The notes: generated by a model not told the origin, from the sequence alone. A stretch of 64,000 nucleotides of DNA from Actinomycetota bacterium (GCA_030645675.1 JAUSLQ010000102.1:1727-65726); one strand, 5' to 3'. Shown: positions 1,173 through 43,345, counted from the first letter of the stretch. A program made the numbers and translations.

Positions 1173-1239
1173 CGACGCGCCACCTCCGTAGGGAGCGGAC
1201 CGGCTGGCGGCCGAGTGGTGGTGGACGCGAGCGGCATGG

Positions 1240-7012: not shown

Positions 7013-7192
7013 GGCAACAGAGGGCCGCCCGCCCCCGCCCGTTCACAATCGCCCGTGTCGTGGGCCCGACAACGTGAGACGGCGCTCGCCGCCGCGACAC
7101 GTGCAATCGTGCGTCGGCGGCGCCGTCACCCGTTCGCAACGGCGGCGCAGCCTAGGCTCGGGCGGGTGAGCAGCGGCAGCAGCACGACCTCC

Positions 7193-9386: not shown

Positions 9387-9502
9387 TGCCGTCGAACGCT
9401 ATCCCAGCACGTATGCCCGCACCCGTCGTGACACCGGCGCCGCGGCCGTCCGCTCACCGTCCACTCCGGCCAGGGAGAACCCCGCTGGCTATCGTCACCG
9501 GC

Positions 9503-12507: not shown

Positions 12508-15500
12508 ATGTTCCTCGAGAGCAAAGTCACCGAGATCGCGATCGGTCAGATCCGTGGTTTCGTCAAGCCGTCGAAAGCCGAGCGCCTTGCCGCGTTCGAA
12601 CTGTTCGTCGAGCTCTCCGTGCGCGTCACCACGCCGTCCATCGAGGACCAACGAGGAATGATGCGTGACGACCTCGACAACCTGGCGGCGATCGGTGCCG
12701 TCACCCGTGAGATCCTGCGCAAGCACGGTTGCGAGGCAGCCAAGAGCCGCAACGATGGCAACATCACGCTCGCGGTCGTCGCGCTGCGCGTGTACAACGA
12801 GATCATCCTCCCTCGGTTGATCGCTTGGGAACCTCTGCTACGCGACCACGAAGGGGTGCGCCTCACCAGGGACCCACCGGTGCAGCCGTACGAGTGGGAG
12901 CAAGGCTGGGACCAGATCTCGATCGCCACCTTCGACCTCGACGGGATGCGTCGCGAGATCCGCTCGTACATGGACACGTTGGCGGCGATCGCCGGCACAC
13001 CGTCGCTGACCGACCTCGTCGTGCCACTTCCGCCGAGTGCTCCGATCGACCCCGTCAGCGTGGCCCGCATCAGTGCAGCGTCGGAGGGTCTGGGTGCACC
13101 CCGCGAGAGGATGGTTCGCTGGTTCAGTCCGTGGGAGGCACTGGGCACGTTCCGGGCCAACCGCGGCCGGCACCCCGGCCGACCCGGTGCCCGCGACCGG
13201 CACGATCGGCAGCCGCAGTGCACGCCGATCACGATCGAAGGCGGGCCTGACGGCGAGACCTGGATCGACTACGTCAGCGACCTCGGCGACGGCTTCGACC
13301 CGACGATGGCGGTCGCGTTCCAGCTCACCCGGCCCTCGCTGACGCTTCCCATCGACCGATCCGGTGAACTGCCGCAACCACCCGGCCACCTGCCACGCGG
13401 CCGCCTGCTGGTGATGGGCGGCGACGAGGTGTACCCGCACTCCACCGCCGAGGGCTACCGCCGCCAGACGATCCTGCCGTACCACATCGCTGCCGAGGCA
13501 CAGCGTGGCGACGACCCGCCGCCCGACGTCGCGCACAACGACATCGTCGCGATTCCCGGCAACCACGACTGGTACGGCGGGCCCGAGCACTTCGAAGACG
13601 TCTTCGTCCACGCAGATCAGTTCGCAGGGCACTACCGGGCACGGCAGTCAGAGCGTTGGTGGGCGGTGCAACTGCCCAAGGGCTGGTGGATGTGGGGCAT
13701 CGACACCGCGCTCGACAACACCATGAACGACGACCAGATCGCCTACTTCCGTCAGGCCGCGGCATTGCTGCGAGAAGGCGATCGGGTGATCATCTGCTCA
13801 CCGGTGCCGTTCTGGCAGTTGCGCCAGAAACGGCAGGCGGACTACTTCGCGCTGCGTTCCTTCCTGCGCACCGAGATCCTTCAACGCGGAGCCCGCACCC
13901 CTCTGTTCCTCTCGGGCGACTCGCACTTCTTCGCGCACTACTGGCGGGTGGACGGGGTGACCGACGAACACCACATCACTGCCGGCGGTGGTGGCGCGTT
14001 CATGCAGCCGACGCACAATCTGCCGGAACAGGTGCCGTACGAGACCGGCGCACCGGAGTTCAAGCTCGGCGCCCGCTGGCCGCGACCCGTGGAGAGCCGT
14101 TCGCTCGGCGCAAGCCTCGGCAGCATCAAGGACCCTCAGTTCCGTTCTCTGTTCGTGATGATCGCACTGGTGCACGCGCTGTTCGCCGGCCTCGTCACCA
14201 TCCGCCTGGGTGCTCTCGACAAGGTTCGCCTGCCGGTCGAGGCTGCCGACAGCGCCGCCCGGTGGGTGATTGCCGCCTGGCCCGGCTGGCCGATCCTCGC
14301 GTTGCTGCTCATCGCGATGACGTTCGCCACCGCTCCGAACAGCCGGGAGTCGCACCTCGTCAAGGGCTCGAAGCGCTACGGCCTGATCCATGGAGCGATT
14401 CAGGCCGCCCTCTTCGTCGCAGTCGCCGCGTTCGCGCGACTCGTCGGCCCCGAGGCCTGGTGGTGGCGCTTCTTCCTCGTGCCGCTCATCGGTGGCGTGC
14501 TGTCCACCGTGCTGTTCGTGATGGCGGTGCGCTGGACGAATCGGTCGATCAAGGCGAACGACACGCTTGCGTTCAGCTCGGCGCATCTCACCCGCTACAA
14601 GCACTTCGTGCGCATGCGCATCAACGCCGAGGGCGACCTCGACGTGTACGTGATCGGCATCGATCCGGTGGGCACCGGCTGGTACCGGACACTCAGGGAC
14701 GGCGGCCTCGTCCCGCCGTACGACGCCAGGGTCGGCATCTCGAAACTGCACTACGTCTGGGGCCGGACGTTCTCCAACGCCAACGCCGGGCAGTTGGTCG
14801 AACGGGTTCGCACACTCGGACTCGGCCATCCCGAGACCCTGTACGCCGCGGTGAGCATGTCCCAACGCCTGCTGGGCGAGTACCGCAAGAACCCCGAGCA
14901 GGGCTCGATCACGGACATCGTCGAGAACCTTCGGCAAGCCGTCAGCCTCGCGCTGGTCACGCACGGGGTGACCCACCGCACCACGATCACCTACGGCGAA
15001 GCGCTGGCCGAGGCACTGATCGTCGCCGGCGGCGAGCTGGCAGCCGAGGGGCGGTCGCTGATGGTGGAGTGCGCCGAAGCCCGACTGGCCAACGACCTGC
15101 TCGAGCGGGAACCCGATGGAGTGCCCTCACCCGCGTCGGCAGCACTGCATCCGGCGACCGTCGACGCATACCTGCGAACTACCGACACCCTCGTCCTGGC
15201 GAACCTCAACGACGATGCGCAGAAGTTCCTGAGCCACGCGTTCGCGACGCTGCACGAACACGCGGGCCTCGGGAGCACGGTCGACCTCGCCCGCTTGGAG
15301 CACGCCGCAGCGCTGGTCAGCCTCGCCCGCGACGACCACCGCGAAGCCCGTTCCCTCATCGATCGCGGCCTGGCCGCGCTCTCGGCGGAGCCCGACACGT
15401 CGGGCGAGATCATCACCGAGGCGATCGCCACGTCGGCGCGGGTGCGGTGTGCCGAGCTCAACGACCCGTACGCCGGCGAGCCCACACGACCGCCGCTCGC

Positions 15501-17202
15501 CGCGGCCAGGATCGAGGAGCTGACAGAGCTGCTCAACGGGCCGCTCCGCGACCTGCCGGACACTCATCCCGCAGCACTCGAACTCCGGATGGCCCTCGCC
15601 AAAGCACACCAGGAGGACGGCTACCTCGCCGGCGCCAAGAGCTGGCTGGAGATGAACGCATATCGGCTGACGGCTGTCGAGTCGCCCGCGCAGCTGCGCG
15701 CACGCCTCCTCAACGCACAGCGGCTCGACGAGGTGCTCAAGGCGATGGGCGACAGCGCTGCGAGTCGCTCTCTTCAGCGTCAGATCATCGACGATGGAGA
15801 GCGGCTGTTCGACAACCCCCTCGCCATGATCAACGATCGGCTGGCGCTCGCCAGAGAGTTGCGCTGGGCGGGGGAACCGCACTTGGCGACAGGCGAGCTG
15901 GAGGAGGTCCTGGCGCGCTGCGCGCAGAAGCCGGGCGAGTCGGCACGGGGGTCGGATGCGGCAGACGTGGCGGCGGCGGCAGGGGCGGCAGCAGACGCGA
16001 GCATCCAACTCGCGAGGGTGCACCTCGATCTCTCCGAACCGCAGCAGGCGCTCGACATCCTCAACGCTGTCAGCACCAGGGGAACGCCCGTAGAGGCCAG
16101 GCTCGGCATCCTTCACCGGCAAGGCGTCGTCGCTGCGCTGAACGCGCTGGGCACCCCGGAGAAGGCACTGGCGCTGCTGCACGACGAATGGATCCGGGCT
16201 GCACAGAAGATGCACACAATCACGTGGGACGACCTCGTCCTCTGTCTGGAACTGGCCCAGCAGCGGGAACGAACGCAGCGCGACGACATCATCGAACTGC
16301 TCGAGCCGCGGATTCCGCAATTCGTCGAACACGACGGTGCCGACGGCTACTACACGCTGGAAGCCATGCGGCTGTTCGCCCGCGAACTGACCCGGTACCC
16401 GGGCTCGCGCGTGTCCGAGGCGGCGGCGATCCTGGAGTCGTGCCTGGCGCTGGTGAGCGACCCGGCGCACGCGCAGCACTGGCAGGTGCAGGCGATCGAG
16501 GCCGAGCTGCTCGAGAACGCGTTGAAGGGTGACCGCGAGATGGGTCTGGCAGTCGCCCGACGAGCGCTGGCACGCAACGACTGGACCTACGGGGACGACC
16601 GACACCTCTTCCTGTTCGACAACATCGCGCGCCTGACGCGAGACGACCCGGTGTCGGCTGTCGCCGCTGCCGAGGAGTTCACGGCTGCGGTTCGCTCCCG
16701 CCAGTTCGTGTTGTGGGACGAACGCGTTCGCCTGGCCGACTACGCGCTGGCGGAAGCGCTCGAGGCCGACCCACAGAACCGATACCGCGAACGAGCGCTC
16801 AGCGTGCGCGAATCGGTCCTGTCCAACGCACTGTGGAACCCGCAGCCCGAGCCGGACACCATCGCCTTCGCACGCTTCCACGTTGCGCGCCTCTCCTCCG
16901 AGGTCGGCGACTACCCGCGAGCGATCGCGTTGCTGGAAGCAATCGTCGCGAACCACGATGGTCCGGCCGCGATGTCCGAGCCACTGCGCATCGAGTGCCA
17001 GCAGATGCTGGCCGACGCCTACCTCGGTTGCGGTCGTGTCGGCGACGCATTGGATCTCATCGAGCGCACCTCCGCGGCGGCGGCTGCCCGTTTCGCTCGC
17101 GCCGACTCGCGCCGGACCGCGATCGAGGAGGCTGCCGAGTGCATCCGAACAGTCGCGGCTCGAGGGCCGTGGGATCCTTCCTCCGTTGCACCGGATGTCT
17201 GA
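12508..17202 (+). CDS. Giant (1564 aa) multidomain protein: N-terminal helical domain, calcineurin-like metallophosphoesterase, multi-TM block, long TPR-like helical repeat array
   Basis: ATG at 12508 preceded by GGGGAGA. Phosphoesterase motifs are YVSDLGDGFD, VMGGDEVYP, IPGNHDWYGG and LSGDSHFFAHY. Hydrophobic segments span roughly residues 545-680. The remaining roughly 800 aa are Ala/Leu/Arg/Glu-rich, TPR/MalT-like repeats. Confidence 0.8.
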   Translation: MFLESKVTEIAIGQIRGFVKPSKAERLAAFELFVELSVRVTTPSIEDQRGMMRDDLDNLAAIGAVTREILRKHGCEAAKSRNDGNITLAVVALRVYNEIILPRLIAWEPLLRDHEGVRLTRDPPVQPYEWEQGWDQISIATFDLDGMRREIRSYMDTLAAIAGTPSLTDLVVPLPPSAPIDPVSVARISAASEGLGAPRERMVRWFSPWEALGTFRANRGRHPGRPGARDRHDRQPQCTPITIEGGPDGETWIDYVSDLGDGFDPTMAVAFQLTRPSLTLPIDRSGELPQPPGHLPRGRLLVMGGDEVYPHSTAEGYRRQTILPYHIAAEAQRGDDPPPDVAHNDIVAIPGNHDWYGGPEHFEDVFVHADQFAGHYRARQSERWWAVQLPKGWWMWGIDTALDNTMNDDQIAYFRQAAALLREGDRVIICSPVPFWQLRQKRQADYFALRSFLRTEILQRGARTPLFLSGDSHFFAHYWRVDGVTDEHHITAGGGGAFMQPTHNLPEQVPYETGAPEFKLGARWPRPVESRSLGASLGSIKDPQFRSLFVMIALVHALFAGLVTIRLGALDKVRLPVEAADSAARWVIAAWPGWPILALLLIAMTFATAPNSRESHLVKGSKRYGLIHGAIQAALFVAVAAFARLVGPEAWWWRFFLVPLIGGVLSTVLFVMAVRWTNRSIKANDTLAFSSAHLTRYKHFVRMRINAEGDLDVYVIGIDPVGTGWYRTLRDGGLVPPYDARVGISKLHYVWGRTFSNANAGQLVERVRTLGLGHPETLYAAVSMSQRLLGEYRKNPEQGSITDIVENLRQAVSLALVTHGVTHRTTITYGEALAEALIVAGGELAAEGRSLMVECAEARLANDLLEREPDGVPSPASAALHPATVDAYLRTTDTLVLANLNDDAQKFLSHAFATLHEHAGLGSTVDLARLEHAAALVSLARDDHREARSLIDRGLAALSAEPDTSGEIITEAIATSARVRCAELNDPYAGEPTRPPLAAARIEELTELLNGPLRDLPDTHPAALELRMALAKAHQEDGYLAGAKSWLEMNAYRLTAVESPAQLRARLLNAQRLDEVLKAMGDSAASRSLQRQIIDDGERLFDNPLAMINDRLALARELRWAGEPHLATGELEEVLARCAQKPGESARGSDAADVAAAAGAAADASIQLARVHLDLSEPQQALDILNAVSTRGTPVEARLGILHRQGVVAALNALGTPEKALALLHDEWIRAAQKMHTITWDDLVLCLELAQQRERTQRDDIIELLEPRIPQFVEHDGADGYYTLEAMRLFARELTRYPGSRVSEAAAILESCLALVSDPAHAQHWQVQAIEAELLENALKGDREMGLAVARRALARNDWTYGDDRHLFLFDNIARLTRDDPVSAVAAAEEFTAAVRSRQFVLWDERVRLADYALAEALEADPQNRYRERALSVRESVLSNALWNPQPEPDTIAFARFHVARLSSEVGDYPRAIALLEAIVANHDGPAAMSEPLRIECQQMLADAYLGCGRVGDALDLIERTSAAAAARFARADSRRTAIEEAAECIRTVAARGPWDPSSVAPDV

Positions 17203-17220
17203 TCGCGAGAGGATGACAAC

Positions 17221-19341
17221 GTGACGCGTGTCGACGGCTCGCTGCCCACGCAGGGGGTCACGTTCCTGCTCACCGACATCGAAGGGTCCACGCGCGCGTG
17301 GCAGGCCGCACCGGAGGCGATGGCGGCGCCCGTCTCCCGCCACTACGAGATCCTCGATGCGGCCATCGCCGCCCATGGCGGCCAGCGGCCCGAAGAGCAG
17401 GGTGAGGGCGACAGCATCGTGGCCGTCTTCCGCAGCGCGGCCGGCGCGGTTGCCGCTGCGCTCGCCGCACAGGTGGCGCTGGCCGGCGAGCTGCCCCAGC
17501 TGCCGGTACGGATGGCCCTGCACAGCGGCGACGCCACGTTGCGCAACGAACGCAACTACGTGGGCCTCACCCTCATCCGCTGCGCCCGCATCCGGTCCTG
17601 CGGCCACGGCCGGCAGATCCTGCTGTCGAACGACACCGCCGCCGAGATCGACGGGGTGCTACCTCCCGGCGCCGGCGTCATCGACCTCGGGGTGTACGGC
17701 TTGCGCGATCTGGCCGGGCGCGAGCGCATCTGGCAGCTCACCCATCCCGCGCTCGCCATCGCGTTCCCTCCCTTGAAGGCCGGGGCCTCTGCCACCGGCA
17801 ACCTGCCCGCACCGATCAGCTCGTTCGTGGGCCGGCACGTGGAGCTGGCTGCGCTGAGCCATGCGTTGGCCGAGCATCGGTTGGTGATGCTCACCGGCGA
17901 GGCCGGGGTGGGCAAGAGCCGGCTGGCGATGGCCGCCGCGGCCGCCGGCGCCGACTCGCAGCCAGGAGGGGTGTGGTGGGTACCGCTGGCGGGCAGCGAT
18001 GAGGCCGGCTCGGTCATGGCGGCAATCGCTCAGGCGTGCGGCCTCGGCGGCACCGGCGACGACCCGTTCGACGCAGTGGTCCCGCACTTCCGCCGCGCGG
18101 CCGACGGGCTGGTGGTGATCGACGGCTGCGAGCATGCGGAGACGGCCGGCCTCGACGTGCAACGGTTGCTGGCGGCATGCCCCGCGCTGCACGTGCTGGC
18201 GACCGGCCGGGAGCCGCTGCGAGTCGCAGGTGAGTTCGTGTGCGCGGTGACCCCGCTCGCCACCCCGCCGGAGACCTTCGACGGGGGACTGCCCGCGCTC
18301 GGCGAGTTCGAGGCCGCACGGCTGTTCCTCGAGCGGGCCGCACCCGCGGCAGGAGGCTTCACCGATGCCGACGCCATTCTCATCGCCGGCATCTGCCGCC
18401 ACGTCGGAGGGAACCCACTGGGCTTGGAACTCGCCGCGGCGCGCAGCGCATCCACCTCGCTCACGGAACTGGCGAGTGGGCTCGGCACTCTCGCTGCCGC
18501 GACCGCACCAACGGGAGGCGTCACCGGCGCGCTGGAGTCGTCGATCGCATGGAGCTACCAGCTGCTCACCCAAGCTGAGCAGGCGGTGCTGCGCCGCTTG
18601 GCAGTGTTCGCCAGCGGGTTCGGGTTCGATGCGGCCATTGCCGTCGCCGTCGCCGGAGCCATCGACGAACCCACCGCGGCAGCCGGCATCCGCACGCTGA
18701 TCGACCAACGGTTCCTCAGCCTCATCGACGACAGCGGGCAGGTGGTGCTCCCGCCTGCCATCCGCAGGTTCGCACGCAGGGAGTCGCTGCGCTCGGACGA
18801 CGCGGGCGGAGCCGGCGCTCGGCATGGTGCGTGGTTCGCCGGCGTGGCCGAACGGTTCGCCGGCGCGGGTGCCTCGCTCCCCGCCTCGTTGCTGGCGCCC
18901 GACGAGGCCGATGTGCTGGCCGCCCTCGACGCATCGATGCACGGCAACGACCCGGAGGTGGCCTACCGCATCATCGTGGGCCTCGGCGCGAAGTGGCTGC
19001 AACTCGATCACGCCGAGATGCTGGCCGCAACGACCGAGTGGGTGTGCGGTCGTTCGCCCAGCGACGGTGAACAGGCCTGGGCTGCGGCCGTTGCACGACT
19101 GTGCTTCGTGCATGCCGACCGGCAGTCGTCACCGATCCACACCTACGCCGAGGAAGCGCTGGCCATCGCCGAGACCGTGCACGACGACCTGTCGCCGCAG
19201 TACCTGGCGCTCGCACGGGTGCCGCATGCCTCCCGACCCTCGGAATCACCCGCAGACCTCGCCGCCGCGATCGAGCTGGCCGCTGCTGCGCCCGGCAGGT
19301 CAGTGGGAACTGTCCGTCTCGACATGGCCGCATCGACATGA
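17221..19341 (+). CDS. Class III adenylate/guanylate cyclase domain fused to a STAND (NB-ARC/AAA_16-type) P-loop NTPase and a helical C-terminal region (706 aa)
   Basis: GTG at 17221, 8 nt after GAGAGGA. Cyclase motifs are VTFLLTDIEGSTRAW, GEGDSIVAVF and RMALHSGDA. These are followed by FVGRHVELAAL, then Walker A GEAGVGKSRLA and Walker B-like LVVIDGCEH. Confidence 0.8.
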   Translation: MTRVDGSLPTQGVTFLLTDIEGSTRAWQAAPEAMAAPVSRHYEILDAAIAAHGGQRPEEQGEGDSIVAVFRSAAGAVAAALAAQVALAGELPQLPVRMALHSGDATLRNERNYVGLTLIRCARIRSCGHGRQILLSNDTAAEIDGVLPPGAGVIDLGVYGLRDLAGRERIWQLTHPALAIAFPPLKAGASATGNLPAPISSFVGRHVELAALSHALAEHRLVMLTGEAGVGKSRLAMAAAAAGADSQPGGVWWVPLAGSDEAGSVMAAIAQACGLGGTGDDPFDAVVPHFRRAADGLVVIDGCEHAETAGLDVQRLLAACPALHVLATGREPLRVAGEFVCAVTPLATPPETFDGGLPALGEFEAARLFLERAAPAAGGFTDADAILIAGICRHVGGNPLGLELAAARSASTSLTELASGLGTLAAATAPTGGVTGALESSIAWSYQLLTQAEQAVLRRLAVFASGFGFDAAIAVAVAGAIDEPTAAAGIRTLIDQRFLSLIDDSGQVVLPPAIRRFARRESLRSDDAGGAGARHGAWFAGVAERFAGAGASLPASLLAPDEADVLAALDASMHGNDPEVAYRIIVGLGAKWLQLDHAEMLAATTEWVCGRSPSDGEQAWAAAVARLCFVHADRQSSPIHTYAEEALAIAETVHDDLSPQYLALARVPHASRPSESPADLAAAIELAAAAPGRSVGTVRLDMAAST

Positions 19342-19360
19342 CCCGGGCGACGATCCAGCG

Positions 19361-20095
19361 ATGAGCGCCCAGCTGCGTACCGACAACACCGAGCACGGTC
19401 CCGAGCAGGACAGCATCGCGCCCGAGGGACCGCGCGCCGGCGAACCCGCGCACGCCTGGTTGGTGCTGTACCAACCGGGTCGGGCGCCGCGCACGGTCGC
19501 GCTGAGTGGCGAGCTCACGGTCGGGCGTCACCTCGGCCAGCCCGACACTGCCGGCCACCTCGCGATTCAGAACGACCCCGCCGTCTCTCGCTTGCACGCG
19601 CTGTTCGTCCACAAGGCCCCCGGTTGGTGCGTGCAGGCAGCCGCCTCCACCAACGGTCTGTTCCTCGACGGCGTCCGGATGGCCAACGGTGCTGTGCAGC
19701 TGCTCGCGCCGGGCGACGAGATCCGATTGGGCGAGCACACCAGGTTGGTGTTCCACGACCTGCACTCGCGCCCCGCCGACCGCTCGCACACCCAGACGGC
19801 GCGCCCGGTACCCGACCTCACGCCGGCGGAGCGACGGGTGCTGCTCTGCCTGTGCTCGCCGGTGCTGGACGGCGACGCGTTCACCCCGCCCGCTACCGTG
19901 GCCGCGATCGCGGCGATGCTGTACGTCACCGAGAGCGCGATCAAGCAGCAGCTCGGGCGCCTGTACCTGAAGTTCGGTGTCGACGACGGCCCCGAACGGC
20001 GCGTGCGGCTGGCCAACGACGCGTTGACGCGCGGCGCCGTGCGCCGCGCCGACCTGCAGTCGTTCCGATCCGAGACCGGTGGCACCACGACATGA
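19361..20095 (+). CDS. FHA-domain protein with C-terminal LuxR/GerE-type HTH (244 aa)
   Basis: ATG at 19361 (MSAQLRTDN). FHA pattern: LTVGRHLG...AVSRLHALF...STNGLFLDGVR...GDEIRLG. C-terminal DLTPAERRVLLCL ... IAAMLYVTESAIKQQLGRLYLKFGV resembles GerE-type HTH. The stop overlaps the kinase start as ATGA. Confidence 0.8.
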   Translation: MSAQLRTDNTEHGPEQDSIAPEGPRAGEPAHAWLVLYQPGRAPRTVALSGELTVGRHLGQPDTAGHLAIQNDPAVSRLHALFVHKAPGWCVQAAASTNGLFLDGVRMANGAVQLLAPGDEIRLGEHTRLVFHDLHSRPADRSHTQTARPVPDLTPAERRVLLCLCSPVLDGDAFTPPATVAAIAAMLYVTESAIKQQLGRLYLKFGVDDGPERRVRLANDALTRGAVRRADLQSFRSETGGTTT

Positions 20096-23000: not shown

Positions 23001-23919
23001 CCTGGAGCGGATGGATGCAATCGACCGCGCGACGGTGGAGACCGAGGTGGCGCGCGCCTGCTGGTGCCCCGACGACGCCGCCGATCGCGCAGCGCTGACC
23101 ACGCGGCACATCGACGAGGCTCGCCGGCAGCTGGCGGTCGGTGGCGCGTCGCGTTGGACCGGCGTGCTCATCGAAGCGCTCAACCACCGCTCGGCGGCAC
23201 ATGTGCAGCTGGGCGACCTCGGCCGGGCGCTCGACGACGCCAACCTCGCCGCCCGCCTGGCCGACGATGCCGGCACCACCTTCCTGCTGACGCGCGTGAT
23301 GATGGGCCAGGCGATGGTGAACAGCACCCTCGGCAACTGGGAGGAGGCGGAGCGCCTGGCCACCGACGCGGTGCGGCTGTCCAGCCGCCACAACCTGGTG
23401 CTGGCGCAGATGGCCATCGCCTACAGCGTCGGCCGCGACCGCGGGCAGCAGGCCGAGCTCGCACAGCTGGAACACCGGCTCGGCGCGTTCATCGATCAGA
23501 ACCCGCTGTTCCTTGCGGCGTTCGCGCTGGTGCACGCCGAGTCGAACCGGTTCGACGACGCCCGTCGCCTGCTCACCACCCTGCACGAGCAAGGCCCGTG
23601 GCCGCGCAACTGGCTGTGGCTGGGCACGAACGTGGCCGCACTGGAGGCGGCCCTGCTGGTCGGGGATCGCGACCAGGTGCGGCGGTACGCGGCGCTGCTC
23701 ACCCGCTACTCCGGGCAGTGGGCGCTAGCGGGTGCCGAGCTGGCCTGCTGGGGCCCGGTCGACCGAGTGCTCGGCCTCGCACATGCCATGGCGGGGCGCC
23801 ACGAGCAAGCGAGGGTGTTGCTCGGCGGGGCCCTGCGCTCGGCGGCGGACCAGCGCGCCACGCCGTGGGCTGCCCGTTGCCAGGCGGGGCTCGATGCCCT
23901 GCCGGCCAGTTCCTCCTGA
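20092..23919 (+). CDS. Ser/Thr protein kinase fused to a degenerate cyclase-homology segment, an AAA_16/STAND P-loop and TPR-like repeats (1275 aa; PknK/MalT-like architecture)
   Basis: ATG at 20092. Hanks motifs are VVKARR (VAIK-like), HGDVKPENLVL, VDFG and GTPGFSAPE. The middle segment TGTITLALLDAT...LVAFSRAGDA...ALHAGDL looks like a decayed class III cyclase fold. This is followed by LVGREASL, then GEPGMGKTRLLAEL, MVIDDIQWID, and a long helical repeat C-terminus. Confidence 0.85.
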   Translation: MTPTTDEAGGKSTATPPSELIGGRFRVSRLLAGGGEAEVWLATDQELGLEVVVKARRIVGGDDLGRLRREAGMLMRITAHPGLPIVRSDLVDGDRYCLISDYIRGHDLRTLVDAQHGGGLPLPTVLNLVDQLAATLDHLHSHRPAVVHGDVKPENLVLAEGSRLVLVDFGAALRVGDDSERLGTPGFSAPEVLAGEALSPAADVYSLAALVVYLLTGIVPRLGAAWPAQLTGGGLGRLERVLRRGLTWDPLGRPWSASEFATRLREAAEMDVPTGTITLALLDATRPVAAVPGAGPGSAPSPLAELEAAGGRVMSTVVPPSGTTLVAFSRAGDAASAALAVAEGQAGGTIALHAGDLGGWHGATLQQLTDEVAALRAQHSGGGTTNDSPGARVVCSPPVRMLLGSDEALVFEPSAHAFVMRRATTTVAPTGVHSEDRGRSVAWRSRGWIAARRARPLVGREASLHSATAAVDRGRLAGESPVVIALGEPGMGKTRLLAELAGRAADRGEPVLVGRCTESGGAFEPFLDALGDELFPFEAGQLERDEEGWIDRRRFFARIAGALSELGGPVTMVIDDIQWIDGSSLALLAQLLDDLAGSLAVLAGCRPGADRQVLDDLLQRPGVTTLSVGPLARASLAELARDAGLQLGPEALDSLSALTGGNPFFGLQLLTHLRDVPGHTLQGHDLPAGVRGWILQRVERLGEGVGATLAPAAVMGRSFEVIALADVLGLSPLEALAHLDAAAATGLLIDGDHPGEFRFVHAIVRTTLEDSLSPARRALMHAAIAQRLEDDGDDLENLEQVLHHWFEADRLGNPVHAAEVAVEVANRATERLAHERAVAVLDRALAVLGSAAATGERDRVEARVRVAHGRADFFASHLDAAIAQLYRAADLAEAGDDPATLAQAALVASMHRRHGRDDPDLLRLLERATDRCPPEPAVLPAMLHIRRARLLPSTVRHEQRCAMARLGLVDLERMDAIDRATVETEVARACWCPDDAADRAALTTRHIDEARRQLAVGGASRWTGVLIEALNHRSAAHVQLGDLGRALDDANLAARLADDAGTTFLLTRVMMGQAMVNSTLGNWEEAERLATDAVRLSSRHNLVLAQMAIAYSVGRDRGQQAELAQLEHRLGAFIDQNPLFLAAFALVHAESNRFDDARRLLTTLHEQGPWPRNWLWLGTNVAALEAALLVGDRDQVRRYAALLTRYSGQWALAGAELACWGPVDRVLGLAHAMAGRHEQARVLLGGALRSAADQRATPWAARCQAGLDALPASSS

Positions 23920-23951
23920 CCCCCAGGTCGTGCTCGCCGAGCGTGGAGGCG

Positions 23952-24877
23952 ATGGTGCCGCCGCGAGCAGCGGTGGACACTGATGGCATGCCAGGGCTGT
24001 TGTGCATCGCCGAGACCCCGGCGTGGGTCGACGGCATCGACATCTGCGAGCACCACGCCATCGACTTCGGTGAGGTACGCCGCAGAGGTGTTCGCGTGGT
24101 GGTGGTTCGCGCCGGGCGCGGCACTCGTCAGGACGCGCACTGGGTGGAGCACGTTCGCTCCGCCGATCTGCAACGGCTGGCGGTGGGTTCGTACTGGTAC
24201 GTGTTCCCGTCGCACACGACCGCACACCATCAAGCCGAGCTGTGGGCAGCCGCCATCTGGTCGGCGCCGACGGCATTCGCCGCTGGGCACTGGGCAGACG
24301 TCTCCACCACCGACGGGCTCGACCCCGTCGAGCTCGGCCGCTACGTCGCCTCGTTCCTGCGTCGCATGGACGAGTTGCTGGGGCACACCGTGGGGGTGTT
24401 CACGATCGGCTGCTTCTGGCGTCGCAACATCAGGTTCGACGTCTCCGACCGCCCGCGCTGGCGTTGTGCCGCCGACGGCCCGACGTCTGTGGATGAACGG
24501 AGAGCCGCCGCCGGTGACGCCTTCGCTGTCCGAACGCGGGCAGCGGATCGCGGTGGACCGGGCTGGCACCGCGTGCGCGCGAACTGGCTCGCTCCCCTGC
24601 GGGCACCCGAGCTGAACGGGCTGCACCTCGTGCCCCGCGGCCCGTTCGACTCCGTGGCGGAGTGGCAGTCGCGGTGGCTGCGTTCGCCCGACGTCGTGCT
24701 GTTGCAGCGGGCGCTGAACACGGCCGGGGCGGAGCTGATCGTCGATGGTGTGTACGGTCCGGCCACCGATGCGGCGGTGCACACCTGGCTCCTGCTGCGC
24801 CGGCGAGACCGGCTCGATCCGCCCGACCCGCACCTCCGTTCAACGCCCCTTCCCAGCGCTGCTAGAACGGCGGCCAC

Positions 24878-24881
<4 letters not shown>
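23952..24881 (+). CDS. GH25 (muramidase)-like domain protein with C-terminal peptidoglycan-binding (PG_binding_1-like) domain; no signal peptide
   Basis: ATG at 23952, with an alternative at 23988. WVDGIDICEHHAIDFGEVRRRGVRVVVVRAGRG ... GSYWYVFP matches the GH25 N-terminal pattern GIDVSxxQGxIDW...G..F..IKATEG...GAYHF. C-terminal VVLLQRALNTAGAELIVDGVYGPATDAAVHTW is PG_binding_1-like. The stop overlaps the next start as ATGA. Confidence 0.6.
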
Positions 24882-27094
<2,213 letters not shown>

Positions 27095-27134
27095 CGGTGG
27101 ACGGCCGAGCCGCGGACTCAAGGATGGTGCACCA

Positions 27135-30100
27135 GTGAGCGAACAAGCAGCAGCCTCCGCCCCTCAGGTGAGTGCGCCGGCACCGGCCGAGGTGAAGCCG
27201 AAGGGGCCGATCGTCGGGTTGGTCATCGCCGCCGCCGTCGCGATGGCCGCCACCGTCTGGTCGTTTCACAACGTGACATCGGCAGACACCGAGTGCGGCC
27301 CGGACTTGCGAGCGTCCTCACGAATCGTGGCCCTCGAGCTCGCCGGCACTGCCGATCGCTTCGAGGACCTCGACCTGCGATGCCGGCAGGAGGCTGCCGG
27401 CGAGGAAGCGGCATCGCACCCACCTGTCAACCAGATCGAGGCCGACCACGCGACCTTGACGAAGGAGTGGTGGCTCATCCTGGCGTACTCCTTCACGCTC
27501 GTCCTCTGGTGCCTGCTCGGCACGGTGGTGCCGAAGCGAAGGGTCACACAGAAGCTCGGCTTCTATCTGATCGCAGCCGCTGTGATCGCTGCAGTCGCCG
27601 ACATCCTCGAGAATTGTCTGCTGTGGAGTGCGGTCGAACACCCCGCCGATGTCACCGATCCCGAAGCTGGCCTCATCGCTGGCCTGGCCGTCACCAAGTT
27701 CATGATGTTCGGGCTCGCCGGCTCATTCGGCCTGGCGTCGTGGTTGGGGGCCGTCGCCCTCATCCTTCGATCGGTCTTCTCCTCGTCGGGTGGCCCGGCG
27801 TTCGAACCGGAGACGCCCACCACCACGATCTCCAAGATGCCCGACATCCTGAGGGACCGACGTGGCCAGCAACTGACTCGGTTTCAACGCCCCGACACCG
27901 GGGGCGTTCCAGTGGACCAGCCCAGCGGCGTCTGCTTCTCGGGGGGCGGCATCCGCTCGGCCAGTTTCACGGTCGGCTGTCTGCGGGCGTTGCAGGGCAG
28001 CGGCCGGCTGCGCCAGGTCCACTACATGTCCACGGTGTCGGGCGGCGGGTATGCGGCCATGGCCTGGCAGGTTGCCCAGCGCTGGAACGAGCAGCACGGG
28101 ATGGACAACGAGCAGGGCCCACTCGCGAAGGACGCACCCGAGTACCGGTACCTCGCCGACAACTCGCGTTTCCTGTGGCCACCTTTGACGGCGGGGTGCA
28201 GGTGGCGATCGACGCGGCTGTTCGTCGGCACGATGGCCAGCGTGCTCCGCGGGATCGGCTTCAACGTGCTGCTCCTCGTGGGCCTGCTGTACGCGGTCGC
28301 TCGCCCATTGGGGTGGTGGAGCGGCACGTGGGCGGCCGACGGGGGCCGGCCAGAGGCACTGTGGCAGATCTTGTCCGGCTTGGGCCAGGGCGTCCTCGTC
28401 TGCATCGTGCTGTGGCCGGCGTTGTCGCTGCGATTCGATCGGATGGCACCGAAGCAGTTCCGGAGAGATCCGACCGGGCCGGCTGACCGATGGGCTGTGT
28501 GGGGGATCGCGGCGATCACGGTGATCGGCGCTGCCTTCCTCATCTGGGTCGTGCTGTTCACCGACTCCCCGGTGCTGGTCAGCGGCTTCGCCCTCATCGT
28601 CGCGGCTGTGGCGTTGATCGCTGGGCTCGCCTGGGCAAAGGTCACCTGCGAGAACGACCCCGACGGTCCGCTCGGCGTCAGCGGCGGTGTGTCACTCGCT
28701 GCGGTGTGGCTGGCTGCACTGGGGTCGACGAGCACTTGGCCGCGGATCGTGGCCATCGTGTTGATCGCCATCAGCCTCGTGTTTGCGTCCATGAGGTTCA
28801 GATCGTTGAGGGCAGCGAGCAGCGTCGGGAACGACAAGACGTGTTCGCGTGCTGGCTGGACGGTTGCCTTCATCGTCGTGCTCCTCGGGGCGGCATGCTC
28901 CACGTTCTGGCGCGGGCTCGGCCGCGAGCATGTGGCGGTCTCGGCGATCCTGATGCTCGCCGGCCTCGGCAGTGCCGCCGTCTGGATCCTCCGCACTCGT
29001 GCCGGCTCCGGTTCTCCCGGAGTGTTGCTAGCGCTCGTGGCCATCGGCTTCGCCAAGATCTGGCTCGACGGGGGGTACCGGCATTCCGTAGACGGATGGC
29101 ACTCGATCGCCGTCCCGGAGATCGACGTGATCATCCGGGTGGGGATCCTGCTCGTCGTGATGGTGACCAGCCTGGCCCTCGCCCGACTGCTGTTCACCCG
29201 GGCGAGTCGGCGGTCCTTGGTCGTGGTCGGCATGATCCCGCTTCTCATCGCGGCGGTGCCAGCCGCGTACTGGCTGACCGGGGTCGCCCTCAGCTCGTGG
29301 AACGCGGTCGTCGGCGTGGTGATCATCGTGTTGCTCCTGTGTTCCTCCTTGGTGGGGCCGTTCGCACACCTCGGTCGCCACCGACGCTTGCCCTACAACG
29401 GGCCGGCCGGCGCCGGCGCCAGATTCCTCGCAGGCCTCTCCTTCGCGGCTCTGCTCACGGTGGGCACCGGCCTCCACCTGTGGCGCCACGACGCATTGCA
29501 CGTCGAGGTGCACGTCAAGGAATGGCTGCTGTGGACGATCGTGACGGCGCTGCTGGTGCTTGCCTACGCACTGTTGGACCAGAAGTGGTGGTCGCCGCAC
29601 GAGATGTACAAGCAGCGCCTTGGTGCCACGTTCGCTCGTGTCCGCAGCGCCAGCGACGATCCGGAGAAGACCGCGCCGCTGCAGGAGAGATCACGCCTGC
29701 CAGTCTGGGCGGAGAAGACCAAGGCCGGTCCGCAGCTCCTGATCTCGGCCGCCGCGTACGACACCACCAGCTTCCTTCCCTCGGAGATACCCACTGTGCC
29801 GTTCGTGTTCGCAGCCGACTACGTCGGCAGCGCTGACATGGGCTTCGCGCGCACGGTCGACTTCGAGGCGGTGCTCGGTCGGGTCAACGAGGCCGACAGC
29901 ACACTGCGCTCAGCCATGGCGGTATCCGGAGCGGCGGTGTCGCAGGCGATCGGCGCCATCCGAAAGGCATCGTTCTCGCAAGTGATCGCGCTGTTCAACC
30001 TGCGCCTCGGTGTGTGGCTGCCCAGTCCGAGCTACATCAACAGCTTCCGGGGTGATGGCTCCACCGGCCTCGGTGTTCGCTGGCTGAAGCTGCGCAGGTA

Positions 30101-30758
30101 CTCGTACCTGTTGAAGGAGTTCACCAGCAAGTACGACCCGGAGGATCGCTTCGTGTACGTGACCGACGGTGGCCAGCTGGAGAACCTCGGCCTCTACGAG
30201 CTCCTGGTCCGGCGCTGTGCAGTGGTCTACGCCTTCGACGCGTCCGGCGATGGCCCGACGAAGGCGACATCGTTGGTGCAGGCGATGCGACTGGCCAACG
30301 AGCGGCTGGGCATCGGGTTCGGGGCAGCCGAGAGCGACGGAGTCTGCGACCCGGCGAAGTACGAGTCGCTCGTCGTCAGCCTCGATCCGTCCGTACTGGA
30401 CCCTGCCGTACCGGACCCTGCCGTACTGGATCCTGCCGTACTGGATCCTGCCGTGTTGACCTCTCCGCCGATCCTGCAGCTGACGATCTTCTATCCCAGC
30501 GTCCTCGGGCTGCCCGAGGCATCAGGCCGGCTGCACTTCGCCAAGGCACGAATGTGGATGGGTGCTCCCCACGAGGTCACCGACTACATCAGCAGAACGG
30601 GCGACGCCGAGTTCCCGAACAACAGCACGATCGACCAGTTCCTGGAGCCCGATCAGTTCGCGGCCTACGTCTGCCTCGGCGAGGCGGTGGCCACCGCACT
30701 GCTGGCTGCTTCCGAGTTGCCGGCTGCTTCCGAGCCCGCTCCCACCGCGCCGGGCTGA
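27135..30758 (+). CDS. Large polytopic membrane protein (1207 aa) carrying a cPLA2/patatin-type lipase core split around TM blocks
   Basis: GTG at 27135. GVCFSGGGIRSASF is a GGGxR oxyanion motif, YMSTVSGGGYAAMAW is the nucleophile Ser motif, and a late YVTDGGQLENLGLYELL is a DG[GA] catalytic Asp motif. More than 12 hydrophobic segments lie between and before these motifs. A C-terminal (DPAVL)5 repeat is present. Confidence 0.75.
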   Translation: MSEQAAASAPQVSAPAPAEVKPKGPIVGLVIAAAVAMAATVWSFHNVTSADTECGPDLRASSRIVALELAGTADRFEDLDLRCRQEAAGEEAASHPPVNQIEADHATLTKEWWLILAYSFTLVLWCLLGTVVPKRRVTQKLGFYLIAAAVIAAVADILENCLLWSAVEHPADVTDPEAGLIAGLAVTKFMMFGLAGSFGLASWLGAVALILRSVFSSSGGPAFEPETPTTTISKMPDILRDRRGQQLTRFQRPDTGGVPVDQPSGVCFSGGGIRSASFTVGCLRALQGSGRLRQVHYMSTVSGGGYAAMAWQVAQRWNEQHGMDNEQGPLAKDAPEYRYLADNSRFLWPPLTAGCRWRSTRLFVGTMASVLRGIGFNVLLLVGLLYAVARPLGWWSGTWAADGGRPEALWQILSGLGQGVLVCIVLWPALSLRFDRMAPKQFRRDPTGPADRWAVWGIAAITVIGAAFLIWVVLFTDSPVLVSGFALIVAAVALIAGLAWAKVTCENDPDGPLGVSGGVSLAAVWLAALGSTSTWPRIVAIVLIAISLVFASMRFRSLRAASSVGNDKTCSRAGWTVAFIVVLLGAACSTFWRGLGREHVAVSAILMLAGLGSAAVWILRTRAGSGSPGVLLALVAIGFAKIWLDGGYRHSVDGWHSIAVPEIDVIIRVGILLVVMVTSLALARLLFTRASRRSLVVVGMIPLLIAAVPAAYWLTGVALSSWNAVVGVVIIVLLLCSSLVGPFAHLGRHRRLPYNGPAGAGARFLAGLSFAALLTVGTGLHLWRHDALHVEVHVKEWLLWTIVTALLVLAYALLDQKWWSPHEMYKQRLGATFARVRSASDDPEKTAPLQERSRLPVWAEKTKAGPQLLISAAAYDTTSFLPSEIPTVPFVFAADYVGSADMGFARTVDFEAVLGRVNEADSTLRSAMAVSGAAVSQAIGAIRKASFSQVIALFNLRLGVWLPSPSYINSFRGDGSTGLGVRWLKLRRYSYLLKEFTSKYDPEDRFVYVTDGGQLENLGLYELLVRRCAVVYAFDASGDGPTKATSLVQAMRLANERLGIGFGAAESDGVCDPAKYESLVVSLDPSVLDPAVPDPAVLDPAVLDPAVLTSPPILQLTIFYPSVLGLPEASGRLHFAKARMWMGAPHEVTDYISRTGDAEFPNNSTIDQFLEPDQFAAYVCLGEAVATALLAASELPAASEPAPTAPG
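30384..30458. repeat. 15-bp in-frame tandem repeat x5 (gayccKgccgtaYYg) encoding DP[SA]V[LP] units
   Basis: Direct reading of 30384-30458. Confidence 0.9.
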
Positions 30759-30782
30759 CAGCGCACCACCGGCTGTGTCGTA

Positions 30783-31664: not shown

Positions 31665-31732
31665 GGGCCGACCGTACACCCGGTGCGGCATACCGTCATG
31701 AAGGCCGCGACGACGAGCGGGACGACAGCCGT

Positions 31733-33535: not shown

Positions 33536-33650
33536 GCGGGCGATGGTAGGTGTGAATCAGCGTCGCGCTGCGGTCGGACGGACGCAGTGGTATCCAGCAC
33601 CGCGCGACCGACTCTGTGGTGCGACACACGCGCCAACGAGGAGGCCGCAG

Positions 33651-37030: not shown

Positions 37031-37247
37031 CGTCCGCCCGCAGCGGCTCGCGATGCAGGGGCCAACGTCCCGACGCGGGGCGCGGCCGCCCACGCGAAGG
37101 ACACGCAGTGCGCGATTCACACGGTTCGCGCGGATGTCAAACGCGCTCCGCGGTCCTCGCTTGCGAAGTCGCTGAGGTCCCCTTTACGGAGCTGTCTCGG
37201 CGGGTTTATGGTCGTCGGTACTGAGTCGATTACCAGGAGGTGCGGTT

Positions 37248-43337: not shown

Positions 43338-43345
43338 ACCCCTGC

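Follow-up and report, generated by a model that had tools for sequence, protein, structure and literature searches.

Seven genes lie head to tail on one strand of the 64-kb window (the whole 64,000-nucleotide stretch of DNA analysed here), and the question that they raise is whether they encode a single system and, if so, what that system does. The first-pass annotation had read them as one seven-gene system in which sensor scaffolds and phosphorylation relays drive a muramidase-like protein and two membrane lipases. All seven plus-strand open reading frames that it claimed are present (Table 1), and nearly all of its domain calls were upheld by Pfam, structure and motif evidence. The junction lengths were also recovered; going from g1 to g7, there are gaps of 18 and 19 nt, an ATGA overlap, a gap of 32 nt, a second ATGA overlap and a gap of 40 nt. 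The start of g5 is the sole ambiguity among the seven reading frames: the public record begins at Met13, which would widen the g4-g5 gap from 32 nt to 68 nt. On balance, we favour the view that a modular signalling system of the Acidimicrobiia, based on STAND NTPases, has been elaborated in this lineage to give the block, and that it follows an abortive-infection or conflict logic.

Table 1. Coordinates of the seven genes, counted from the first nucleotide of the window.
Gene	Position	Strand	Product	Stop codons
g1	12508-17202	+	1564 aa	single, terminal
g2	17221-19341	+	706 aa	single, terminal
g3	19361-20095	+	244 aa	single, terminal
g4	20092-23919	+	1275 aa	single, terminal
g5	23952-24881	+	309 aa (297 aa if start = Met13, 23988)	single, terminal
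g6	24878-27094	+	738 aa	single, terminal
g7	27135-30758	+	1207 aa	single, terminal

Gene order was compared in 52 related loci from Acidimicrobiia MAGs and metagenomes, with g5 as the anchor. The order g2-g3-g4-g5 is almost invariant: of the loci that could be judged, 33/34 have g2 upstream of g5, 35/36 have g3, and 43/44 have g4 directly upstream of g5. An order kept in this way across dozens of contigs is more than chance. The core occupies stable chromosomal positions in many genomes, with uridine-kinase-like, GroEL and HemQ-like neighbours, and one MAG carries two copies of it (L010 and L030). In the recovered loci g5 always stands beside g4, and g6 follows g5 in half of the loci (18/36). 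A variant made up of four genes, g2-g4-g6-g1N (54-57% identity), occurs in loci including L058 and L063; in these two, g3 and g5 are both missing and g6 comes directly after g4 and before a g1-type gene. Judged from these comparisons, the fixed part of the system appears to be g2 and g4, each with a head, a P-loop switch and a helical or TPR sensor tail, usually joined by g3 and g5. The exchangeable part would be membrane-embedded hydrolase cassettes (g6 and g1-type) placed 3′ or occasionally 5′ of this core.

The g2 protein consists of a class III cyclase-like domain (aa ~10-190), a STAND NTPase with a Walker A motif (GEAGVGKS at 226; AAA_16/nSTAND1 match) and a helical C-terminal region. Its cyclase domain scores 21.8 bits for Guanylate_cyc, against a Pfam cut-off of 21.9, and matches the trypanosome GRESAG4 cyclases in the PDB with an E-value of 2e-8. 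The domain retains Arg123 and both metal-binding Asp residues (D19, D64), with Gln60 at the substrate-Lys position and Ile119 at the transition-state Asn position; all of these residues are invariant in ~30 orthologues. The g4 protein, 57-77% identical to its orthologues, begins with a non-RD Ser/Thr kinase head (K54, H148-G-D150, D168-F-G, APE; Pkinase E 3e-25), in which HGD and DFG are kept in 30/30 orthologues. A linker (aa ~230-450), a STAND NTPase (GEPGMGKT at 487; AAA_16 E 4e-18) and a TPR-like C-terminal array (TPR_2 match) follow. PADLOC matches to g4 concern the kinase domain only. According to HSP identities, the TPR tail is no more divergent than the kinase head, and there is thus no sign of sensor diversification. 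The two or three NTP-dependent scaffolds originally proposed are reduced to these two, since a motif scan found no Walker A or P-loop in g1.

Between the two STAND genes, g3 encodes a solidly called FHA domain (aa ~53-125; E 7e-11), in which the canonical G55-R56, S76-x-x-H79 and N98-G99 are invariant in orthologues and whose ortholog profile matches FHA structures including that of EmbR. Support is weak for an HTH of sigma70-r4/LuxR type at the C-terminus (aa ~150-210), which matches Sigma70_r4 at E 0.004 and the C-terminal domains of NarL and ChrA at E 0.2-0.7 (0.67 for NarL). The predicted role of g3 is that of a phospho-threonine reader, which from its distribution would belong to the core of most loci. 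The kinase, FHA, patatin and phosphoesterase parts of the block all have intact catalytic motifs that are conserved.

The muramidase-like g5 had been cast as a wall-hydrolase effector. Its fold and its lack of a signal peptide stand: matches to GH25 (E 2e-11) and to a canonical PG_binding_1 domain (aa ~244-280; E 1e-4) were recovered, a segment scan found no hydrophobic, TM or signal segment, and the top Foldseek matches of its AF2 model (pLDDT 76.8, barrel >90) are all GH25 lysozymes, at TM 0.72-0.76. The effector role is less well served, because in the DxE motif only D116 is retained and the catalytic Glu is replaced by Ser118 (S/T/C/A in 29 relatives). The protein is probably a cytoplasmic GH25-fold barrel and an unlikely wall hydrolase; a role as sensor or adaptor is at least as likely as one as hydrolase. 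Its family is tiny: when 1.84 billion representatives were searched exhaustively with its profile, only 16 matches reached E<=1e-30, mostly fragments.

The putative effector cassette behind the core is g6, a frequent one on the locus counts given above. It opens with a patatin domain (87 bits; GGGAKG at 38, G-A-S67-A-G, D214-G-G), continues into ~5-6 TM segments, also has an Asp-Asn low-complexity tract, and keeps its motifs in orthologues, with the Ser-Asp dyad intact. At the other end of the block, g1 comprises an N-terminal helical domain (aa 1-220), a metallophosphoesterase (aa ~240-530), four TM helices (aa 547-674), a small beta domain (aa ~695-755) and a long helical, TPR-like tail (aa ~760-1564). 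Pfam scores are low (Metallophos E 0.03; TPR_7 weak). The motif set DxG/GDxxY/GNHD/GDSH/TH is invariant, with D258-x-G, G-D306-x-x-Y309, G-N352-H353-D, H473 and H503 unchanged in 30 homologues, and an AF2 model of aa 1-760 (pLDDT 87.5, pTM 0.89) has purple acid phosphatases/phytases and SMPDL3A/B as its top Foldseek/PDB matches. Motifs and model together support a predicted purple-acid-phosphatase/SMPDL3-like metallophosphoesterase.

By its distribution, g1 seems to be a variable module outside the fixed core. Phosphoesterase-4TM proteins of this type recur in 12 loci. Only in two of these (L006 and L007; 43-50% identity) do they lie upstream of g2 with a TPR tail; in the other 10 they take other positions, nearly all downstream of g5/g6, are mostly SLOG-tailed and often stand behind a TIR gene. 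The 760-aa module is found elsewhere either SLOG-tailed or alone beside TIR genes. Its regulatory tail is TPR here, and SLOG in sister loci, where it is paired with a TIR protein. Such modules next to TIR or with SLOG were seen in seven type-B loci and in L004, L058, L060 and L061; in some orthologous clusters a TIR protein and a SLOG-tailed g1 come directly after g6. Other related loci hold several TIR and TIR-SLOG genes beside transposases, which accompany L058 and L060. A SLOG remnant directly after g5 in L010 indicates cassette decay.

TIR and SLOG form the Thoeris signalling pair (bioRxiv 10.64898/2025.12.03.692087), and their presence in sister loci favours a conflict or abortive-infection role. 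The resemblance to conflict systems that had been suggested gains support from the sister loci, and is weakened by the stable chromosomal positions and by a 64-kb window in which no mobile-element signature or flanking repeat was found. If the favoured reading holds, the TPR tails would bind a trigger, perhaps by way of g5, which might bind peptidoglycan fragments or precursors. NTP-dependent assembly would then activate g4 as a kinase, and perhaps g2 as a cyclase. Phospho-threonines on g4 or g2 would recruit g3 through its FHA domain and couple the complex to DNA via the HTH, a layout that would resemble an Rv0386/PknK-type regulator with its LuxR module moved to a separate FHA protein. The output may be the activation or expression of g6 and g1, which would attack membrane lipids and lead to growth arrest or death.

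Several features sit uneasily with an immune function. The HTH component suits a plain transcriptional regulator; the g2 cyclase lacks the canonical Asn, and no receiver for its product, cNMP-binding or other, was found in the window; the g4 tail shows no sensor diversification; and the core lies beside housekeeping genes, has no counterparts on the viral contigs searched and carries no hallmark of a named system. It is possible, though we think it rather unlikely, that the locus is instead a non-immune regulator, in which kinase, cyclase and FHA-HTH protein sense envelope status, g5 binds cytoplasmic peptidoglycan precursors or turnover products, and the patatin and phosphoesterase adjust membrane lipid and wall homeostasis, much as in PknB/FhaA, PknH/EmbR or MalT/LAL. 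The core is 50-77% identical over family-level diversity in its stable contexts, g5 resembles a binder more than an enzyme, and the EmbR match of the FHA profile, the HTH output and the lack of mobile elements in the window all fit such a regulator. FHA+LuxR, CHD+LuxR and PKc+TPR+LuxR are, moreover, known architectures of ordinary actinobacterial regulators (PMC3466318). However, TIR/SLOG partners and multi-TIR neighbourhoods such as those of the sister loci typically go with immune signalling rather than housekeeping, close relatives differ by the gain, loss and decay of effector cassettes, and only 29 loci were recovered when 185,579 species representatives were scanned. Cluster genes also diverge faster than their flanks, with 60-77% identity to the nearest relatives vs 81-86% for the shared flanks.

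That the seven genes together make up a single operon-encoded system, with g5 as muramidase and g6 and g7 as lipases co-deployed to destroy the envelope, is improbable, and g7 tells against it. This polytopic membrane protein has a split patatin/cPLA2-type core (N-half aa ~260-350, C-half aa ~850-1200) interrupted by a ~500-aa TM insert, with roughly >=12 hydrophobic segments; S269-GGG-I-R274, V-S302-GGG and D1011-GG are invariant in 24 family members, and the N-half scores 24.9 bits for Pfam Patatin, below the 27.7 cut-off. Co-directionality, gaps of <=40 nt, two ATGA overlaps and Ser-Asp lipase dyads intact in both g6 and g7 favour the seven-gene reading, as do g7-family members in Proteobacteria that are fused to PG_binding_1 and so echo the g5-g6-g7 neighbourhood. 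Nevertheless, g7 was found in 0/24 of the related loci long enough to show it, and the homologue nearest to it, at 38% identity, stands alone in an unrelated genomic setting. Here g7 occupies a variable gap between g6 and a conserved flavin oxidoreductase flank; L003, L005 and L023 keep this oxidoreductase at 81-85% identity but have other genes in the place of g7. L023 is without g1 as well, although its upstream amidohydrolase flank is kept at 86% identity. The missing catalytic Glu of g5 recalls the Cpl-1 E94Q form used to trap ligand (PDB 2ixv), and g3 and g5 are dispensable in the four-gene variant. The claim of a single seven-gene system is not supported: synteny holds for g2-g5, extends to g6 in half of the loci, is rearranged for g1 and fails for g7. 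Membership of g7 in the system is not supported by these comparisons; it appears to be a neighbouring membrane lipase that was added in this lineage only, and it may or may not share control with the genes 40 nt upstream. Its family is widespread, with ~900 homologues spread over many phyla.

We give very little credence to a lysis-cassette-like arrangement, in which g5 is held in the cytoplasm until membrane patatins permeabilise the membrane, by an endolysin/holin logic, for programmed release of cell contents or altruistic death: the signal-less GH25-fold and PG-binding g5 does lie directly upstream of, and is translationally coupled to, the predicted membrane-damaging g6, but the catalytic Glu is missing family-wide, g5 occurs without g6 in half of the loci and co-varies with g3 rather than g6, and neither nearby phage genes nor viral homologues were found.

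The modular signalling system that we favour has no described equivalent in PADLOC, NCBIfam or the literature searched, in agreement with the first-pass annotation, and domain searches confirmed that the window is without CD-NTase, SAVED, TIR or other named-system hallmarks; PADLOC called no defence system there. Thoeris (ThsB TIR; ThsA SIR2-SLOG), in which TIR makes a signal, SLOG senses it and an effector fires, with many effector types newly proposed, resembles the sister-locus g1-type module with its SLOG tail (LD_cluster2/STALD) beside a TIR protein. In contrast, TIR and SLOG are both missing from the window, as is any match to the PADLOC ThsA/ThsB models, g1 is TPR-tailed, the predicted effector is a TM-bearing purple-acid-phosphatase/SMPDL3-like protein instead of SIR2, Macro or similar, and a larger STAND kinase/cyclase cluster surrounds the module. 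The mycobacterial regulators Rv0386/Rv1358/Rv2488c (cyclase-ATPase-TPR-LuxR) and PknK-type proteins (kinase-ATPase-TPR) share the LAL/MalT-like head-switch-repeat layout of g2 and g4, and a Gln at the substrate-Lys position of Rv0386, the same as in g2, is said to have been described by Castro et al. in 2005. They differ in that the HTH of the block is unfused, on g3, and that its STAND proteins are always paired and tied to GH25-like and membrane hydrolases. PknH-EmbR likewise sets a kinase beside an FHA DNA-binding protein, with the pThr residues invariant in g3; EmbR, however, has BTAD+wHTH vs the small sigma70-r4/LuxR-like HTH of g3, and the g4 kinase is of non-RD type, in a cytoplasmic protein where a STAND NTPase is fused to it.

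Among defence systems, CBASS CapV, like the patatin effectors of other such systems, shares the patatin Ser-Asp dyad with g6, which weakly matches PADLOC phospholipase effector models (E 9e-11). The block has no CD-NTase or cyclic-oligonucleotide sensor, though, and g6 is twice the size, has its TM helices and reaches 22 bits against an NCBIfam CBASS_lipase cut-off of 200. Antiviral STAND/NLR-like ATPases (Avs, bNACHT and their relatives) are tripartite effector-NTPase-TPR sensors too, but their heads are nucleases or proteases whereas those of the block are signalling enzymes (kinase, cyclase-like), the STAND pair here is obligate with extra conserved partners, and no PADLOC Avs or bNACHT model matched the block. 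The NTP-dependent conflict systems of multicellular bacteria described by Kaur, Burroughs, Iyer and Aravind (2020; PMC7159879) have domains in common with the block and its sister loci: FHA, STAND and S/T kinase recur in them, as do TIR, SLOG, a calcineurin-type phosphodiesterase and a cNMP cyclase that is often inactive. Their cores (vWA-MoxR-VMAP ternary, GTPase etc.) are absent from the block, patatin has 0 occurrences in that paper, and neither there nor elsewhere in the literature searched was this gene set found to be described.

The first and last genes had also been thought to use more A/T-ending codons. Their GC3 (g1 0.846, g7 0.849) is indeed below that of g3, g4 and g6 (0.89-0.90), but g2 (0.856) and g5 (0.826) are equally low and the flanking genes overlap (0.837-0.921), which leaves the signal weak; overall GC is lowest in g7, at 0.670.

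The block comprises seven plus-strand genes, referred to here as g1 (phosphoesterase with four transmembrane (TM) helices and TPR), g2 (cyclase-like head and STAND module), g3 (FHA-HTH), g4 (kinase, STAND and TPR), g5 (GH25-like with PG_binding_1), g6 (patatin with TM segments) and g7 (polytopic protein with a split patatin domain). Their open reading frames lie exactly where the first-pass annotation had placed them, and so do the junctions (18 nt, 19 nt, an ATGA overlap, 32 nt, a second ATGA overlap and 40 nt). The sole ambiguity is the start of g5, which the public annotation sets at Met13; the first ~24 residues are unconserved in an alignment of relatives, and look-up located the 297-aa form on a single 3.7-kb Logan contig and nowhere else. 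Exact look-up in the contig index gave no record for g5 with the first-pass start or for g7 (locus tag Q7V88_06140). The contig that holds the window is 66.9 kb long and comes from an Actinomycetota MAG; MAGs of Ilumatobacteraceae and Acidimicrobiaceae are the nearest relatives. At its GC content of ~70%, neither the promoter scan of the block (0 promoters) nor the terminator scan (a count equal to shuffle expectation) is informative. GC3 differences fall inside the spread of the flanking genes, and a compositional island was ruled out as evidence.

Rather than the fixed seven-gene operon originally proposed, the unit consists of a modular core, g2-g5(-g6), to which variable cassettes are attached. 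The small g5 family served as synteny anchor, and all seven proteins were mapped onto the recovered loci, 29 of them in species-representative genomes and 23 in metagenomes; near-duplicates (L023/L035/L036/L053 and L011/L040) make independent observations fewer than the raw counts, and denominators refer to loci long enough for judging. The g2-g5 genes are near-invariant, with g4 directly upstream of g5 in 43/44 loci, g3 in 35/36 and g2 in 33/34. By comparison, g6 follows g5 in half of the loci (18/36), g1-type genes occur in 12 and g7 in none (0/24). All conserved genes retain the window's order. Two loci, L006 and L007, have g1 with its TPR tail in the same position as in the window, giving a conserved six-gene g1-g6 arrangement; in both, a convergent endonuclease/exonuclease/phosphatase-family gene lies right after g6. 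In the nearest relatives (L003, L005 and L023), identity in the flanks (amidohydrolase 86%, flavin oxidoreductase 81-85%) exceeds that of the cluster genes (g2-g6, 60-77%). These relatives have no g1, and unrelated small enzymes at the place of g7; therefore g1 and g7 are lineage-specific additions at both ends of a conserved g2-g6 body. Two locus labels, "uncultured Bifidobacterium" (L006) and "delta proteobacterium" (L029), are probably binning or labelling errors, and horizontal transfer was set aside as their explanation.

The cassettes vary in content as well as in presence. Seven loci carry g6, then a 445-aa TIR protein, then a g1-type protein in which a SLOG tail (LD_cluster2/STALD, PF18163) replaces TPR. 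The SLOG-form gene directly follows g5 in L004, L044 reads g5-g6-g1N (g1N being the ~760-aa g1-type module without a particular tail), and only a SLOG remnant follows g5 in L010. Seven other loci have no cassette, g5 being followed directly by housekeeping genes (uridine-kinase-like, DUF1800/DUF1501, GroEL and HemQ-like). The closest g1N homologues led to three further arrangements. In L063, g3 and g5 are missing and the order is g2-g4-g6-g1N (54-57% identity); L058 has these four genes too, and behind them four genes of TIR or TIR-SLOG type next to an IS element; L060 and L061 are bare g1N+TIR modules. The modules are {g2, g4}, {g3, g5}, {g6, g1N} and {TIR, SLOG}, with g7 an outsider. One MAG, MFD09964.bin.2.226, holds two copies of the g2-g5 core (L010 and L030), the SLOG remnant of L010 being truncated; barring a binning artefact, this points to a core that was duplicated and a cassette that has decayed.

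Two proteins of the core, g2 and g4, share a layout of head, Walker A P-loop inside AAA_16/nSTAND1, and helical or TPR tail. Two of the "two or three NTP-dependent scaffolds" first envisaged are thus present; the third is not, as g1 has no P-loop. The cyclase-like head of g2 scores 0.1 bit below the Pfam cut-off, and its PDB matches include trypanosome cyclases (E 2e-8); it is followed by the Walker A/AAA_16/nSTAND1 module. It retains both metal Asp residues (D19 and D64) and R123, and has Gln60 at the substrate-Lys position and Ile119 at the transition-state Asn position. These five residues are invariant in ~30 orthologues, which argues that the domain is under selection; g2 is at most a putative cyclase. 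No receiver for a cyclase product and no cNMP_binding domain is present in the block, and the sole candidate receiver among all loci is a cNMP_binding protein encoded directly upstream of the g2 orthologue of one Ilumatobacteraceae genome (L033). The g4 protein consists of a Ser/Thr kinase (K54, HGD, DFG, APE), AAA_16 and TPR. Its kinase is of the non-RD type (HGD) with motifs kept in 30/30 orthologues, the linker at aa ~277-456 matches no Pfam family, and the TPR tail is not hypervariable among orthologues. In g3, every phospho-threonine (pThr)-binding residue of the FHA domain is invariant, and a small C-terminal HTH gives only weak matches (Sigma70_r4, E 0.004; C-terminal domains of NarL and ChrA, E 0.2-0.7).

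The GH25 (beta/alpha) barrel fold of g5 is supported by both HMM (Pfam 44.9 bits, the cut-off being 27) and structure comparison, in which the best 22 Foldseek matches are all GH25 lysozymes (TM 0.66-0.76). The protein also carries a canonical PG_binding_1 motif, and no signal peptide or TM segment was found in it. Of the catalytic Asp-x-Glu pair, D116 is retained and the Glu position is Ser118, this position being S/T/C/A in 29/29 aligned relatives, and the family has invariants of its own (RAGRGTRQD, HHQAELW and GHWAD). The sequence thus speaks against the earlier assignment as a wall hydrolase, which g5 probably is not. It always has g4 as a neighbour and co-varies with g3. A ligand-binding adaptor is the more plausible role and a lysin the less plausible one, making it a candidate intracellular peptidoglycan-ligand sensor in bacteria. 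A more specific proposal, which we regard as rather improbable, is that g5 could be a cytoplasmic receptor for peptidoglycan fragments or precursors feeding the NLR-like STAND kinase/cyclase pair, which would be the bacterial counterpart to muropeptide sensing of the NOD1/NOD2 type. If true, wall damage (e.g. by phage lysins or antibiotics) would be coupled to phospho-Thr/FHA signalling and membrane-lipid-degrading effectors, and the PG_binding_1-fused g7-family patatins of Proteobacteria would be a second, independent case of such coupling.

Both g6 and g7 carry the oxyanion, Ser-nucleophile and Asp motifs of patatin-type lipases. The motifs of g6 (GGGAKG at 38, GAS67AG and D214GG) are kept in orthologues, and the protein scores 87 bits against Pfam Patatin, with an intact dyad and ~5-6 TM segments. 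For g7 the score of 24.9 bits is under the 27.7 cut-off, PF01734 is found on many homologues, and the patatin/cPLA2 motifs (S269GGGIR, VS302GGG and D1011GG) show no variation among 24 relatives; a ~500-aa polytopic insert splits the patatin/cPLA2-type domain throughout this large family (~900 matches in many phyla). The closest homologue of g7 (38% identical) occurs by itself, in an unrelated gene neighbourhood, and g7 is probably a bystander to the system. Six ~1250-aa family members from Proteobacteria (P0077, P0080, P0091, P0095, P0099 and P0101) have an N-terminal PG_binding_1/PG_binding_2, and neither a leader nor a TM segment precedes the patatin half, so that these domains would seem to face the cytoplasm. 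A membrane patatin paired with an intracellular PG-binding module thus looks like a recurrent design. The sole repeats found are in-frame tandem tracts, one in g6 and one in g7, both candidate length-variable linkers.

The g1 protein is nearly invisible to profile HMMs (Metallophos E 0.03; 15-18 bits against a 21.5 cut-off). A ~220-aa helical domain stands before its phosphoesterase; behind the enzyme come four TM helices, then a small beta domain and finally a helical/TPR-like tail of ~800 aa. Neither the N-terminal nor the beta domain matches a Pfam family. Across thirty homologues the motifs DxG, GDxxY, GNHD, GDSH and TH are invariant, and this set is the purple-acid-phosphatase signature. 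A sequence-profile search of g1N against the PDB gave no match, and fold search alone succeeded: the confident AF2 model of residues 1-760 (pLDDT 87.5, pTM 0.89) retrieved purple acid phosphatases/phytases first (E 4e-6) and SMPDL3A/B second (~3e-4). With these metal-ligand motifs and the MPE sandwich fold of the model, g1 is predicted to be a calcineurin-like metallophosphoesterase of the purple-acid-phosphatase/SMPDL3 branch.

The cluster is an unnamed, new variant within the known STAND-based signalling/conflict class. As the first-pass annotation had anticipated, no named system is matched: PADLOC on the seven proteins, the sister TIR, SLOG and g1N proteins and the flanks gave generic kinase, patatin and HerA similarities only, NCBIfam gave nothing above any curated cut-off in the block, and no description of the cluster was found in the literature on this domain combination. 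A TIR with a SLOG-bearing effector follows Thoeris logic (bioRxiv 10.64898/2025.12.03.692087); TIR (ThsB) is absent from all seven proteins (Pfam and PADLOC) and present only in sister loci, and the g1 tail is TPR-like, the signal-binding SLOG occurring only at other loci. The block has no CD-NTase or SAVED match as in CBASS, and g6 reaches 22.4 bits against the 200-bit CBASS_lipase cut-off. For Pycsar, g2 has a class III cyclase-like head, yet no PADLOC Pycsar model matches and no cNMP_binding domain accompanies it. Both g2 and g4 have the effector-NTPase-repeat architecture of Avs/NLR-like antiviral STAND proteins, but no Avs or bNACHT PADLOC model matches either, g4 being matched by kinase-domain models only. 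The best of these, PD-T4-6 (E 6e-36), is a stand-alone kinase of ~300-500 aa and covers only aa 18-225 of 1275 in g4; it is generic kinase similarity. The domain vocabulary overlaps that of NTP-dependent conflict systems, but the domains of the vWA-MoxR-VMAP ternary systems are absent from all seven proteins (Kaur et al., 2020, PMC7159879). This gene set appears neither in that paper nor in the Thoeris-effector study. A vWA protein just past the flavin oxidoreductase flank, with no MoxR-type partner among the neighbours scanned, is not obviously part of such a ternary system. The head-switch-repeat layout of g2 and g4 is also that of Rv0386-/PknK-type actinobacterial regulators, from which they differ in having no fused LuxR, the HTH being supplied by g3 on an FHA protein; FHA+LuxR, CHD+LuxR and PKc+TPR+LuxR are catalogued actinobacterial architectures (PMC3466318).

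On balance we lean slightly towards a conflict system. Of the first-pass interpretation, the seven-gene unit and the third scaffold have fallen, the g5 hydrolase is improbable, and the conflict-like design stays plausible, strengthened because TIR and SLOG occur in sister loci. In the simplest model of such a system, ligand would induce NTP-dependent assembly of the STAND pair (g2/g4), the kinase would be activated, g3 would be recruited via pThr, and the membrane hydrolases would then be activated transcriptionally and/or directly. A stress or envelope-regulatory role, unlikely as we judge it, stays a serious rival because the core sits in stable chromosomal contexts in many genomes, the window has no mobile-element scars (and no direct or inverted repeats around g1 or g7), no cyclase-product receiver is present, the g4 tail is not hypervariable, and viral contigs hold no g5 relatives and one distant relative of g1N. 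Were the role regulatory, the cluster would be a natural "split" LAL/MalT-type regulator, with a DNA-binding module recruited via phospho-threonine. If the conflict reading is right, it would be an unnamed multi-gene system from Acidimicrobiia, a poorly studied, abundant class, with eukaryote-like parts (non-RD Ser/Thr kinase, FHA, cyclase-like domain and STAND switches) upstream of membrane-lipid effectors. One phosphoesterase-TM effector would be driven alternatively by TPR, SLOG/TIR or the STAND pair, and a purple-acid-phosphatase/SMPDL3-type enzyme would widen the catalogue of Thoeris-like effectors. Three features stand out: an apparently dead lysozyme as partner, an FHA-HTH output that is split off, and a putative TM effector of purple-acid-phosphatase type in which SLOG can take the place of TPR.

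Table. Coordinates of the block, its neighbours and features of related loci.
Sequence	Position	Strand	Feature
Window	1192-3561	+	789-aa protein, no family
Window	5222-7042	-	606-aa protein, no Pfam family at E<=1e-3; PADLOC HerA 7e-11, mad8 8e-11
Window	8157-9398	-	413-aa protein, no family
Window	12508-30758	+	g1-g7
Window	~26765-26815		(GACAAC)n tract encoding (Asp-Asn)8, g6 aa 630-645
Window	~30420-30450		VLDPA pentapeptide repeat, g7 aa ~1097
Window	30759-31732		Stretch of ~1 kb from g7 to the conserved flavin oxidoreductase, no convincing gene
Window	31206-31787		193-aa ORF, no family
Window	33228-36074	+	948-aa vWA protein
Window	37176-41018	+	1280-aa fusion: type I phosphodiesterase/nucleotide pyrophosphatase, metallophosphoesterase, 5'-nucleotidase C-terminal domain
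Window	42210-45203		Divergent pair: SBF/ACR3-type transporter, tandem ArsA ATPase
Window	46118-53329	-	Surface-protein cluster: WxL, WxL-interacting PG-binding, fibronectin-III and sortase domains
L007	13039-15105	-	~690-aa endonuclease/exonuclease/phosphatase-family protein (example)
L010	11113-11676		Truncated SLOG remnant right after g5
L033	2337-3314		325-aa cNMP_binding protein

Several other loci lie in the window. About 5 kb before the block begins, the 606-aa protein and the two proteins flanking it may form a defence-like locus of HerA type in its own right. The region of the 193-aa ORF beyond g7 differs between relatives. Further downstream, the 1280-aa fusion is probably a large extracellular nucleotide-scavenging enzyme, and the divergent pair after it looks like an arsenic-resistance module. 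The surface-protein cluster adjoins an ABC ATPase; because WxL clusters are best known from Firmicutes, it is slightly unusual to find one in a MAG of Acidimicrobiia.
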